From positions 1 to 62,717 of the forward strand of contig ML002236.1 in NCBI GenBank assembly GCA_003614675.1: 62,717 bases of DNA, in the 5' to 3' direction. Numbering within the stretch: the stretch's first letter is position 1; each line of letters begins with the position of its first letter. A program made the translations under genes and the position numbers. This document shows positions 18,377 to 25,046 of the stretch, in pieces. This DNA comes from Dimargaris cristalligena (lineage: Eukaryota). The notes below the pieces were generated by a model. It ran no database searches, was not told the DNA's origin, and saw only the letters and a list, made by a program, of their open reading frames with translations.

Positions 18377-19230
18377 ATGCTCAACCCTATAGTGCTCCTT
18401 CGCATTCTCATCCTGGCCGTGGTGGGTCTGCTCTTGCTGACCGCCTATGTCTACCGGTTCGCAGCCTTTTGCCAATGGGCTACTCCTAGTATGTACTTTA
18501 AGCCCTTATTGAGTTAGTGGGGGGTTTAACCTCCGCCTTGGAAAGAATGCCCCTGGGTGGGTTCATTTACCCGGCAACTTTAATCCCCTGCACAGGGAAT
18601 ATATATCAATCGAATATCAATCTGACTTGTTGGGCCCTGTAACCAAAATTAACCACGTATTCCAATCATATATATATACAACTCTCTTTCATCTACGCCC
18701 CGCCCGATAATCCAGATTCCGAAGTGCGTATGGCTCTTTTTGCTGACCCCCAGATGGAAGGTGATGCTAAACTCCATCGGGAACCCCGGAAAGGTACGTT
18801 TCGTTTTTATCAGCATTCTAAATCAAGCTTCGAGCTATAACTGTCGGGTGAATGGGCTTGATTTTCCACCTGGGACATTCCCCAATGCCGTGCTTATCCA
18901 AATAGGCGATACCTACCCTCCACATCCCCACATCAAGAGCATTGCCCATTAACATTATTGCATATACTGTTTGGTCCAAATGAATCGTATAGGCCATTAC
19001 GACTTGCTATTCAACGACCATTTTCTTCGACATACCGTGAAAACCGTATTCCATGAAACCAAGCCGAGCCACATTATGTTCATGGGTGACATTTTCTCAA
19101 ATCAATGGATATCAAGCGGGGAATTCGCCTCACGTTTGGACCGGTTTAAATGGACTACTGGACAGGTGAGTATATCAATTGGATATTATTTTCTGTGGTA
19201 CTGGTGCTATCAGACCTAAATGAGAATATT

Positions 19231-19263
<33 letters not shown>

Positions 19264-20594
19264 ATGGTGTATAATTTAATGATCCGTCGGAATACATCCG
19301 GTAACACACTGCAGCTGATCGTACAACTCTCGTTTCATCGTGCCCCCCATTAGATGCCTTTGATTCTTGCCACCTTCTCACACTTGTATTGACCTATACT
19401 GTATGCTCTCGTCTTACCTCCAAACGAAAGTTACCGGGTGACTTTTTGCCCACAGGATTCCCTCTCTACAACTTGTCGGGTAACCATGACATCGGCTATG
19501 GTCGGGACACTACCCCCGTAATGGTGGAACGCTGGGAGAAAGACTTTGGTTTGGTCAATCACCAGTTCGTTATACTAGCGGACCATCCGGCGGCTCCCAA
19601 AGTTGTCATGCTAAATACCCAAAATTTGGACCATTCCCGCTATGCTTCGGTGCAGGAGGCGGCCTGGAAGTTTCTCCAACAGGTATCTGAGGAGCAATGG
19701 GCGACTCATTTCACCCACCCCCTTCTCCTGTTTCTCCACATCCCCCTTTACAAACCGACCGGGCTCTGCGTTGACCCACCCGAAATTAATGTCAATACCC
19801 GGGATGAGATTATCGATCAGACGATGCTGTCACCCTGGATCTCCCGTTATATTCTCTACTGCCTGCGACCGACGGTTATTCTAACGGGTCATGATCACGA
19901 GGGCTGTAAAACCGAGCATCGGGTTGGTCCCGTCGAGGCCAAGTCGATAGACATGGTGGCCCTAAAGCAGTGGTGTCAAGCGGACCCGCATACGCTAGAG
20001 GCCGGGATTGCGCCTTTTGAAGCGGCCCTGCCCGTAACCGTGGACAATTGGGCACCGACGTCCGACCCTCTTCGCACCACGTCCCCGGAGTCCATTCGTG
20101 ATCTGCAGGAGCTGGTCGTACCCGAAATCACCGTGCGGTCGATTATGGGTGACTTCAATGGTAACTCAGGGCTGTTTGAGATTGTAGCCAAACAAGGCCC
20201 CCGCCAATGTAAGTCGAGTCTGTGATTACCCCCCGTTATACTACTATTCCTGCCCTGTCCTTATTTGAAGGGATGGTTTACCAGTGAGCTGCATCCATTA
20301 TCTTGATCAACGTGCTTCAGTCACTCGAAACCAAAGCGCGGTCCTCACCTCATGTACAAAACTGCATCTTTCTGTCACACATTTTTGGGTTGGACCATTG
20401 ACCTTCATACAGACGAGTACCAATACTACTACCAGGACTGTCGGTTAGGGCACCACGTCTATATTCGAGTCATACTTATTGTTGATATAATAGCCCTGCT
20501 GCTTTTGGTGGCTGCCTTAATTATCTACCCCATTTCGGGTTGGGGATTGCGGGCTCTTATTACTGGTCATCGCCACATTAAGAAACAGTATTAA
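18377..20594 (+). CDS. TED1: Ted1/MPPE1(Cdc1)-family GPI-remodelling metallophosphoesterase. Exons about 18377-18488, 18716-18793, 18993-19165, 19431-20208 and 20413-20594
   Basis: N-terminal TM anchor; calcineurin-like motifs ADPQMEGD, MGDIFSNQWI, GNHDIGY, HIPL and GHDHEGC; EITVRSIMGDFNGNSGL; C-terminal TM. Splice phases are consistent. Confidence 0.88.
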
Positions 20595-21485
20595 ATGCCC
20601 CATTTGGGCTTCTATTTTCTTATTGACATTCTGATTTCGCGAATTTTATTTCTGCACCACTTTAACGGTTGAATGGGCTGACTCATCCAAAGGTACTACA
20701 TGATGATTAATTAAACTATCCAATAATAGGTACCTAAGTGATGCCAAGAGTTTAACGTATGTCTTTACATATTGTGTGTGGTAGTGTATGGTGTCTTGTA
20801 GAGTAAATATATCTCGCTGGTCGTATATTCCATAGTTAATATTTTTTCTTTACACTAGCCCCACTACGATTGTTAATGGTTAACGACTTATGGTTAGGTA
20901 TTATTTAGTGTGTAATTGTTAAACCATTGGGGACATTTGCCTGAGATTCTGAAAATTGGCCATGCCGATGCTCTCCGGTGGAAAAGTATATCCCATACTG
21001 GGTCAAAAGCTCAGACCGGTCAGGGTATATCACGTGAGTAACCAGGTCTTCTGGTGCTATGCCAGCCACACCACCACAACACACCCTAAACCATGGGTTA
21101 GAAATTGCCGCAGTTGTTGGTAATAAACATATTTCTGTTTTTATATTGGCTTTAGTCAAGAAGCAGCTCTGTGCACCTCAATAGCCTCTGTCCTATTTCG
21201 GCATTTTGGTCTCTTCATTCCGTGGCAAATTGTGATATCTCATTACCAGCCCTAAACTCCCGAAACCAACCAGTTCAACCCCAACCCGAATCGGCCTCTA
21301 CTACTCCCCGCTGGCCCTCATTCCCACCTTACTCGTCCCCAACCCTGACCCTGGCCCATCTCACCTCCCTCCGCCTCGTACGTAGACGCGCCCGGCTCAT
21401 CGCAACTTTTGCATTCCGCCCCACCCCCTTAGTATTCCCAGTTGGGTCTATTGGCTATCGTTGTTTACTGCGCTCGTCGTTCGCC

Positions 21486-24400
21486 ATGGCCCAGTCCTCC
21501 AATCTAGCCAAATTTTTCCAGAGGTTTCAACAGGGGGCTGCTAAACCGGACAAGGCCGCTCCCGCATCCCCCGACTCGGTCGATTCCACCGGCAAGACCG
21601 ACTCCGTCATGGGTCGGTCCACCCCAGCGGACCGCAAACGCCCCCCGGTCATTTCGTCTGACGAGGGCTCCGATAATGAATCCACCGCTCCTGCTACTCC
21701 GAATGGGGGGGTATCGGCCCCAGCTCTCCCGCAGAAAGCCGATGCTAAGCCTAATGCAGGTTTCTTTTCGGCGGCCCCCGTGCCTAAAAAGGCCAAGCTG
21801 GAGAAGCTGGTGAAGAAGGAGAACGGGTCTGGTAGCGATTCGGACGATTCGGTCTACGAACCCGCTTCCGTCGAGGAGGACCTAGCTAATCAAGTGGCGG
21901 ATGCCAAGATCCAAAACGAAAAGGCGTCACCCCAACCGGCCAAGGCGGCCAAATTGACCAAGACCAAGAAACCCGCCAAAAAAGCCGCTGATATTAACCT
22001 GCTGGCCCCCAAATCCGTGATCCAGGAATTCAATACATTAATCGAAACCCATGTTCCTTACGGGGCCATGTGCTACATGTTCGAAAGAGTCGAAGAAACC
22101 ACCAAGCGGCTACTTATTACCGATATCCTGACCCACTTCTTCCGGCGGGTAATTGACAAGGCTCCCCAGGATCTACTTCACTGTGTGTATCTCTGTATCA
22201 ATCGGCTGGCTCCTCAATATGACGGGCTGGAATTGGGTATTGGTGAATCGCTCCTCATTAAGGCTATCGCTCAAGCGACTGGCCGAACTAATGCCAAAGT
22301 AAAGAGCGACGTGGCCCGGTTAGGCGATATGGGTTTAGTGGCTAAGGTAGGCTATTCGTTTTTAACAGCGCTATATTTGGGTGATAGGTATCGTCTATTT
22401 CATATGTCACTCTGACCGCCTATCCGTAGCGTGTGGTAGTATACTGTATAATCTCTGGACCACACGCCCTACTTTATTTTACACATATTTCTGCAGCTAA
22501 TTTATAATCATTTTTGGGGAATTTATGATACTGCACCCATCGCTTAATTTTTGCACATCATTAGGAGAGCCGCAGTAACCAAAAGACCATGATGGGCTCC
22601 CGCCAACTGAAGGTTTCCTACGTCTTTACGGCTCTTAAACAAATCGCTACTGCATCGGGAACCAAGTCTACCACTACCAAAGTGGACAAGATTAAGAGCC
22701 TGCTCGCAACTTGCCAGAATAACGAGGCCAAGTACCTGATGCGGTCCCTTGAGGGTAAACTGCGCATCGGTTTAGCGGAACAAACTGTGCTTATTGCCCT
22801 GGCTCATGCCTTTGCCCTGAATAGCCTAACTAAGCGACTATCGGAGGAAACCTTGGCCGAGGTACTCAAGGATGCCACCGCTACCGTCAAAACGGTCTAC
22901 AGCGAATTGCCGAGTCACAACGTTCTCATTCCGGCTCTTCTTGAGGGCGGTATCCAAAACCTACATGCCACTTGTAAACTGACCGCGGGTATCCCTGTCA
23001 AACCCATGTTGGCTCACCCGACCAAGGCAATTTCGGAGGTACTGGACCGGTTCGAGGGCCAGCTGTTCACCTGTGAGTATAAGTACGACGGAGAGCGGGC
23101 CCAGATCCATCGGTTGGACAACGGCCAGATCACGATTTTCAGCCGCAACTCCGAGAATATGACGGCCAAGTACCCGGATCTGGCCGAAAAGTTACTGCGG
23201 GCGGTGAATCCCCAAACCAAGTCCTTTATCCTTGACTGTGAGGCAGTAGCCTGGGACAAGTCCCAACAAAAGATACTCCCGTTCCAGATTCTCAGCACGC
23301 GGAAACGGAAAGACGTAAAGGAAGAGGATATTAAAGTGGCGGTGTGTATTTTTGCGTTCGATTTGCTGTATCTAAACGGTCGGTCCCTGTTGCGGGAGTC
23401 ACTTGTCCAACGACGGGCCAAGCTGCTGGATGCGTTTCAAACCGTAGATGGCGATTTTCAGTTTGCTAAAGCCGTGGTGGCCACCGAAGTCGAGACCATT
23501 CAGACCTTCTTGGATGAGAGTATTCGAGGTAAGCCGGCCAGGTATCTATAAAGAGTGTACTGTACTATAGGTTAAAATATCCGCTAGGCTAAGTGTCATT
23601 CTACCCCCCCCTTTCTAACTCCGTTCAGAATTTTTTGCCATCCTCCCCCTTTTTGCCCTCCAGATAACTGCGAAGGGCTTATGGTCAAAACCCTAGACGG
23701 CGAGGAGGCTACCTACGAACCGTCTAAGCGATCGCGCAACTGGCTGAAGGTAAATTTTTACAAACTCATTGGACTATCCCATTTTATTGCATTAGTTGAT
23801 AGTGAGAAGGTATCACAGTCCCAATTTAGATGCGTTTGTCGAATTAAATTCTGATATATATTTAGATGCATCGGATATATACTCTTCGCGTACATTCTTG
23901 TTCTAACGTATTTGATGCTCATTACCAACAACTCATATCTACATTACCCCCTCTTAGGTGAAGAAAGATTACATTATGGGGATTGGTGATTCATTGGATC
24001 TCGTCGTAGTTGGAGCCTACCTCGGGCGTGGTAAGCGCACCGGTGTGTATGGCGGATACTTACTGGCCTGCTATAACCCCGATAGTGAACAATACGAGAC
24101 CATCTGCAAGGTAAGCCTCGACGACTGTTAAATTCATTAGCCCCGGCGACACCACCATACTTTTGTTTATTGCCCTGTCGCCATTGTGGGCCACTGGTTC
24201 CCGTTCACAGTTCGCTGAGTTTTCACCATTAGACCCCTTACTAAAAAATACCTCAATATTTTTATGTATAATGCGCTTTTCGCTTTCATAAGATTGGAAC
24301 CGGGTTTTCGGAAGCTGACCTGGAGTCCCACTATAGCGAGTTTAAGGATCTGATTATCAGTCAACCCCGTAGCTACTATTCATTCGGAGACAGTGCCAAA

Positions 24401-25046
24401 CCAGATGTGTGGTTCAATGCCAAGGTTGTGTGGGAAGTCAAGGCGGCAGATTTATCGATATCGCCGGTTTATAAAGCGGGCATTGGAAAAGTAAGTAACC
24501 GAGTACAACAGGATGCCTTTGGTATGAAGACCCCGGTCAGTCAATGATTGGGATTAAATGTACTATTATGCATATTCTCCTCGCATATCCCAACTCTTAA
24601 TTATGGCTAATTTACCTGGTTTACTTTTCTGAGGATCCGAGATTGCTTTCATTAACTGACCATGTTTTTTGCCCATTGATGTCGCCCTATTCACCCATCA
24701 ATTCTATAGGTTGATAACAACCGGGGGATTTCCCTCCGTTTCCCCCGCTTTATCCGCATCCGGGATGACAAGTCAGCGGAAGATGCCACCAGCTCTGATC
24801 AGGTAAGTGGCTGACCAGCCCATTTATAAGTTGCCCAAGGGTATTTCCATAATACTGGCGGATTGTCTATTTACCTTACTTCCATGGCTTCATAACCAGC
24901 TGGATCTACTTTGGTTCTAACCCGAGCTTACAATATTTCCTTACTTCGGGGGTATCTATTTGTTCTAAAATTTACAGGTAGCCGAAATGTATCAAAGCCA
25001 GAAACTCAATACTGCCAATGGTGCGGCTAGTGACGATGACGATTAG
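21486..25046 (+). CDS. CDC9: DNA ligase I. Exons 21486-22346, 22565-23528, 23664-23749, 23958-24110, 24293-24490, 24710-24802 and 24978-25046
   Basis: PIP-like [26 protein letters not shown], adenylation motif [43 protein letters not shown] and [16 protein letters not shown]. Confidence 0.97.

Follow-up and report, generated by a model that had tools for sequence, protein, structure and literature searches.

By which codon could the DNA ligase I gene (LIG1/CDC9) of Dimargaris cristalligena start a mitochondrial form of its product, when the presequence-like region ahead of its nuclear start holds no AUG? The question arises on contig ML002236.1 (assembly GCA_003614675.1), and the window analysed here is that whole stretch of 62,717 nucleotides, read on the forward strand. 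An original prediction, made from the letters of this window, had proposed dual targeting of the ligase by leaky non-AUG initiation. The present analysis suggests that the 45 codons ahead of the nuclear AUG very probably encode a mitochondrial presequence, as their place, length and composition match those of the AUG-started presequences of orthologs, and that the gene probably makes a CUG-started mitochondrial isoform by leaky scanning. The presequence half of the proposal is supported by the ortholog match. Initiation at the CUG is what we infer as the simplest way to make a presequence-like stretch that has no AUG of its own.

The ligase gene and its nuclear start

The ligase coding region, placed by spliced protein alignment, occupies 21486-25046 of the forward strand. 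It comprises seven exons, the last ending at 25046, separated by introns at 22347-22564, 23529-23663, 23750-23957, 24111-24292, 24491-24709 and 24803-24977. The introns were taken from this alignment; a de novo splice-site model was noisy, recovered none of them, and was discarded. The product has 807 residues when counted from AUG 21486 and 852 when counted from CUG 21351. The downstream exons encode the three ATP-dependent ligase domains DNA_ligase_A_N, A_M and A_C, with KYDG as the KxDG motif. The 100% match in a homolog search is Dimargaris cristalligena, followed by Cdc17 proteins of Dispira, Dimargaris and Tieghemiomyces, and among solved structures the matches to ligase 1 chains (E ~1e-199) far exceed those to ligase 3 (1e-47) and ligase 4 (1e-35). 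By these similarities, the gene is the DNA ligase I of D. cristalligena.

The ATG at 21486-21488 lies in the context TTCGCC ATG G, which ranks at the 91st percentile of the control AUG contexts described below, and the N-terminus that it sets coincides with the annotated starts of Dimargaritales orthologs. Directly after this Met, comparison with orthologs reveals the pattern Q-x-x-x-L-x-x-F-F (21486-21518), which resembles a PCNA-interacting protein (PIP) box. The box is of the Q..L..FF type and one residue longer than the consensus. Aligned with the ortholog consensus MxxxQxxLxxFF its spacing is likewise one residue off, making PCNA binding putative. The comparison identifies ATG 21486 as the nuclear start, ahead of the PIP-like box; in human LIG1, the PIP box lies at residues 2-9 (PMC1865074).

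Two public gene models place the 5' end elsewhere. Model P0001 (609 residues) begins at the internal Met 22077, 197 residues late, and model P0121 (1192 residues), from a second assembly, merges the ligase with the gene ahead of it (18377-21485) by way of the AUG-less open frame. Both look wrong at the 5' end.

The upstream frame and its candidate CUG start

As the original prediction had described, the frame ahead of ATG 21486 is open and free of in-frame ATG; it stays so for 110 codons, beginning at 21156. Also as described, the CTG at 21351-21353 is in frame, 45 codons ahead of the AUG, in the context ACC CTG G (21348-21354). Set against the 81 control AUG contexts, this candidate start of a mitochondrial precursor is at the 91st percentile. 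An upstream in-frame AUG, the feature of dual-start ligases, is absent both from these 110 codons and from the 70 open codons of the second assembly. The features of a near-cognate start are present, with a well-placed in-frame CTG followed by neither stop nor AUG until the main AUG. Translation of the 45 codons (21351-21485) gives eight Arg and no Asp or Glu, the composition first reported for them, and also no Lys.

A second in-frame CTG, overlooked previously, is found at 21345-21347, 47 codons before the AUG. This CTG, whose context ACC CTG A falls on the 54th percentile of those of the control AUGs, is a possible weaker additional start; it also overlaps CTGAC, a branch-point-like pentamer. 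The 65 open in-frame codons farther upstream (21156-21350) are P/S/T-rich and leader-like, and would be 5' leader if the CUG is used or a coding exon if an upstream exon is spliced to them. Whatever the frame, the closest ATG upstream is that at 21093, followed by Gly and a stop. This short frame (21093-21101) has a fairly strong context (ACC ATG G), begins 258 bases 5' of the CUG, and would be an upstream open reading frame if transcription begins 5' of it.

If the CUG is used, the pathway likely involves: transcription of a single LIG1 mRNA from about 21100-21340, upstream of 21345; initiation by a minority of ribosomes at CUG 21351, and perhaps by some at 21345, to give the 852-residue precursor; import of this precursor into mitochondria, directed by the 45-residue Arg-rich amphipathic presequence; and trimming by MPP (the mitochondrial processing peptidase) and Oct1 to about the nuclear N-terminus. 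Most ribosomes would scan on to the strong AUG 21486, producing the 807-residue nuclear ligase with the PCNA-binding box at its front. CUG 21351 would here replace the weak first AUG of orthologs.

Two short motifs are also found in this region: a palindrome, TCACGTGA, at 21030-21037, and ACGCG at 21386-21390, inside the extension. The leader of a metagenome ligase locus (L045) also carries TCACGTGA and ACGCG-like runs. The former presumably resembles a bHLH promoter site, and the latter a G1/S promoter element.

Presequence-like character of the extension

Background rates were taken from the genome itself. A coding model was trained on 663 kb of D. cristalligena sequence and 122 candidate starts were picked, of which 96 lacked an upstream coding signal; removal of coding-like in-frame leaders and of five entries from the window left 81. 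These control starts are predicted rather than verified and include a few antisense shadows; read in three frames, they provide 243 windows. Leaders of this genome are C/T-rich, and as a result an open frame of at least 45 codons is present in 20 of the 81 controls, and Asp and Glu are both missing from 82 of the 243 windows. The open frame and the absence of acidic residues are near background and carry little weight.

The arginines are less readily matched. At least eight Arg occur in none of the 81 in-frame control windows and in 3/243 windows of any frame, and the three frames of the 135-base stretch encode eight (ligase frame), two and four. A single control has an in-frame RNN-CTG-G located 20-70 codons upstream, and none has a near-cognate codon with a purine at -3 ahead of an acid-free peptide rich in Arg.

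The extension scores 6.1 for composition, on a scale trained with 21 presequence-like stretches that start at an AUG as positives and the 243 control windows as background. Two control windows reach this value, and it equals or exceeds that of 17 of the 21 positives. The score peaks for windows starting at 21345-21363 and is negative further upstream. The N-terminal half is amphipathic, with a hydrophobic moment of 10.9 as compared to a median of 6.9 in the positives; only 1/243 control windows is as high. Cleavable presequences are described as 20-60 residues long, Arg-rich, poor in acidic residues and able to form a positively charged amphipathic helix (PMC7723863), and the 45-residue extension agrees in length, Arg content, acidity and predicted helix.

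The site of cleavage is a separate matter. The original prediction had likened the R-S-S-F-A end to an MPP site. This assignment is downgraded because that end overlaps the start context TTCGCC; TTCGCC ATG G also precedes the cytosolic AlaRS start and the second AUG of ValRS. An R..FA end is found in 1/81 controls. A better candidate is the R-10-type processing pattern formed by R37, L39 and S42 (21459-21488), which occurs in 0/81 controls, although it is a pattern match alone and was spotted after the fact. Motifs of this type have residue preferences at -8 and -5. If this pattern is used, cleavage by MPP and then Oct1 would expose Ala47, the residue that follows the nuclear Met. The R-10 motif is defined in PMC7723863.

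Ligase I in relatives

A close parallel is Dispira simplex, a member of the same order. In two records (P0003 and P0122) that may be alleles, an extension of 43 residues that starts from an AUG immediately precedes the PIP-like Met of its ligase I; it includes 4-5 Arg but neither Asp nor Glu. High duplication is reported in this species (PMC9866270). The order of elements is that of D. cristalligena, but the D. simplex extension starts with an annotated Met.

The second D. cristalligena assembly represents the same species and was compared at the protein level. It contains 70 open codons with one Arg-to-His change, Leu at both CTG positions and no Met, which makes a sequencing error of an original ATG unlikely, and that explanation was rejected.

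Among 222 ligase I proteins, a set that includes many related agarics and hence records that are not independent, a PIP-like start is found in 130. Of these, 97 begin at the PIP-like Met, 29 are annotated with an AUG-started extension 11-62 residues long, three with one of two residues, and one is partial. All 29 of the annotated extensions have at most one acidic residue.

Metagenome ligase loci extend the comparison. From 80 such loci, 20 fungus-like ones were examined for a PIP-like start, which was findable in 11; an upstream in-frame ATG is present in seven of these. In locus L113 the region upstream of the PIP-like start is cut off. In locus L093, an apparently spliced contig with a fungus-like ligase I, 37 open codons lie ahead of the PIP-like Met and contain no ATG (328-433). 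Within them, an ATC in the context GCC ATC A precedes a stretch rich in Arg and free of acidic residues, making L093 a second candidate for a non-AUG presequence that hints at an independent swap in another fungus. Locus L085 was set aside as a further non-AUG case: it has a GCTAAC that resembles a branch site, together with a CAG close to the end of the contig, and may be spliced.

Points against CUG initiation

Several observations weigh against the CUG reading. The first comes from other genes of the genome. ValRS, CysRS, HisRS and CCA1 each have two in-frame AUGs flanking a presequence-like stretch of 38-69 residues, the first AUG lacking a C-rich context and looking weak; the LIG1 layout is alike. 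Within its Pfam family, ValRS is named from its motifs. These genes indicate that a leaky-scanning arrangement is in use in the genome. Equally, they show that near-cognate starts are not the norm, all four likely dual-targeted genes checked using two AUGs. Second, CUG initiation leaves unexplained the 110-codon length of the open frame, which none of the 81 controls reaches. Third, the coding model separates the frames of the extension weakly (+2.2 vs +0.6 and -6.6) as compared to the presequences of those four genes. No hairpin was found downstream of the CUG (z = +0.94), so that context alone would set the rate of CUG initiation.

The relatives provide further points on this side. The extension could not be aligned to the D. 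simplex protein by BLASTP. An extension is annotated in two of seven records (one of five species) of other Dimargaritales, the five remaining records, from four species, having none. In metagenome locus L045 a stop lies six codons before the PIP-like Met, showing that an in-frame extension is not universal. Searches of the genome itself found no second ATP-dependent ligase, a result that favours the CUG reading, but they did not find LIG4 either. DNA ligase IV may have been missed, lie in an assembly gap, or have been lost; given its absence from the matches, a LIG3 may have been missed as well.

Alternative explanations

The alternative that survives best, though it is unlikely, is that the 135 bases are an ordinary 5' leader or proximal promoter, with Arg codons arising from CG-rich elements and with mitochondrial DNA sealed by a different enzyme, or by ligase that is imported in some way not involving this peptide. 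The background rates for open and acid-free leaders are consistent with this proposal, as are the 13 CpG in the stretch, a number reached by 3/81 controls, and the location within it, at 21386, of the sole ACGCG between 20601 and 21486. The coding score of the extension is near zero and the leader-profile score stays high across 21320-21440, but the AUG-started presequences of the genome likewise have near-zero coding scores and are leader-like. The leader-profile scan was rejected as a start marker because its maximum in the four dual-AUG genes falls close to the second AUG. With 2220 contigs and LIG4 not found, the assembly could also lack a second ligase. An annotated Arg-rich extension is also absent from all 34 Mortierellaceae ligase I records (P0004, P0006-P0014, P0016-P0026, P0028-P0039, P0041), a family that may rely on a different mitochondrial ligase or on a concealed start. 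Against a plain leader, the Arg codons are concentrated in the ligase frame, and composition, hydrophobic moment, CTG context and R-10 pattern coincide in one stretch at levels of 0-1/81 starts or 1-2/243 windows. D. simplex, moreover, has an AUG-started presequence-like stretch of nearly equal length in the same place.

Less probable still is an upstream AUG exon spliced into the open frame. The fit of the mitochondrial SerRS gene to such an exon led to the enumeration of 119 ATG-donor-acceptor combinations for LIG1. Only one intron among them, 21034-21155, has a GTRAGT donor. The corresponding exon would run from ATG 20962 or 20968 to 21033, so that exon and GTGAGT...TAG intron together span 20962-21155 of the forward strand, and the extension would comprise 132-134 residues. 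The donor follows the consensus and keeps the phase of the open frame, whose bounding stop doubles as the TAG acceptor. The model would account for the 110 open codons. A comparable one can be built in only 5/81 controls and, among the 20 whose leaders stay open at length, in one. Residues 1-30 of the spliced product score 2.4, the presequence median, and the SerRS gene, which looks AUG-less, provides a precedent in this genome.

The details of the splice model are less favourable. All six LIG1 introns begin with GTA, whereas this donor is GTGAGT and sits within the palindrome TCACGTGA. The last 60 bases of the intron contain no CTRAY-type branch site, which is also true of two of the six LIG1 introns. 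The exon scores as non-coding (-9.9), and the surroundings of ATG 20962 and 20968 are unlike those of a gene start: scores this low occur in 7-8 of 64 controls, although a true mitochondrial start also scored -4.6. The spliced extension would be about twice the length of the longest annotated one, and would bury the Arg-rich helix behind ~90 residues. An acceptor directly before the helix is precluded, as there is no AG between 21274 and 21383. Acceptor 21385, with CTGAC 41 bases upstream, would require a GTTAGA or GTAATA donor, and the region is 50% C as compared to 21-34% in LIG1 introns. A micro-exon from ATG 21093 was rejected for its non-consensus GTTAGA donor and a presequence score of -5.0.

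Other genes of the genome

The long frame of the mitochondrial SerRS gene (L175; G000 C157) lacks a Met throughout its first 207 codons. The presequence of this gene may be split between an upstream AUG exon (1498-1537) and a frame resuming at 1745, after a putative intron at 1538-1744 with a GTAAGT donor. AlaRS is represented by two genes (L030 and L033; G000 C1568 and C509), one cytosolic-looking and one with a presequence, as compared to the single dual-start gene of yeast. A class II synthetase at 1904-3601 of L177 (G000 C754), which by its motifs looks like a bacterial-type homodimeric GlyRS, has a frame without an evident presequence, and no other GlyRS-like match was present among seven matches. 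One of two PIF1-family matches (L182; G000 C18) contains internal stops and lies among frames that resemble a Helitron-type element.

Discussion

A two-start DNA ligase I has been described before. Budding and fission yeast use it (10.1101/2024.01.21.576553), which supports the statement in the original prediction that yeast CDC9 makes both ligase forms from two starts, and so do Arabidopsis and a red alga (PMC3914683). In S. cerevisiae CDC9, S. pombe cdc17 and Arabidopsis LIG1, as in the layout proposed here, the presequence lies between two in-frame starts and the nuclear start is near the PIP box. Their first start is an AUG, whereas that of D. cristalligena would be a CUG.

Near-cognate starts of mitochondrial isoforms are documented for other fungal genes. 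The mitochondrial form of yeast GRS1 is reportedly made from a UUG start. In the dual-localised "DualNCC" tRNA synthetases, including yeast AlaRS, Cryptococcus LeuRS (ACG) and ArgRS (AUU), an upstream near-cognate start gives the mitochondrial form, and weak AUG and near-cognate starts have been swapped several times in fungi (PMC7049704). The original prediction had cited both GRS1 and ALA1 of yeast. That source supports AlaRS, but among the fungi it lists, a near-cognate GlyRS start is given only for S. pombe. The layout of these synthetases, with a near-cognate start upstream for the mitochondrial form and an AUG downstream for the other, would be that of LIG1. The differences are that the gene here encodes a DNA ligase, that the partner compartment is the nucleus, and that the organism is a mycoparasite of the Zoopagomycota. 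In yeast, cryptic mitochondrial isoforms also arise from upstream near-cognate codons, whose N-terminal extensions add a targeting signal (PMC6582344); neither CDC9 nor "ligase" appears in the main text of that study, although its supplement may list a ligase. In the literature searched, which covered few subscription journals, no report was found of a non-AUG-started ligase I or of non-AUG targeting in Zoopagomycota. A CUG-started ligase I would bring an established mechanism to a gene not previously linked with it in that literature.

The evidence tips slightly in favour of D. cristalligena making its sole mitochondrial DNA ligase from a CUG while D. simplex, of the same order, starts from an AUG. 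If this is correct, the annotation faults of P0001 and P0121 would be explained, and the 97 ligase I records that start at the PIP-like Met may conceal such extensions. As the mechanism is already established, LIG1 would be a tidy added case for the specialist rather than a surprise. DNA ligase I would join the essential dual-targeted enzymes whose mitochondrial form can switch from a weak AUG to a near-cognate start or the reverse. The mechanism would then extend to early-diverging fungi, and, as the L093 contig hints, the swap may recur on the ligase I gene.

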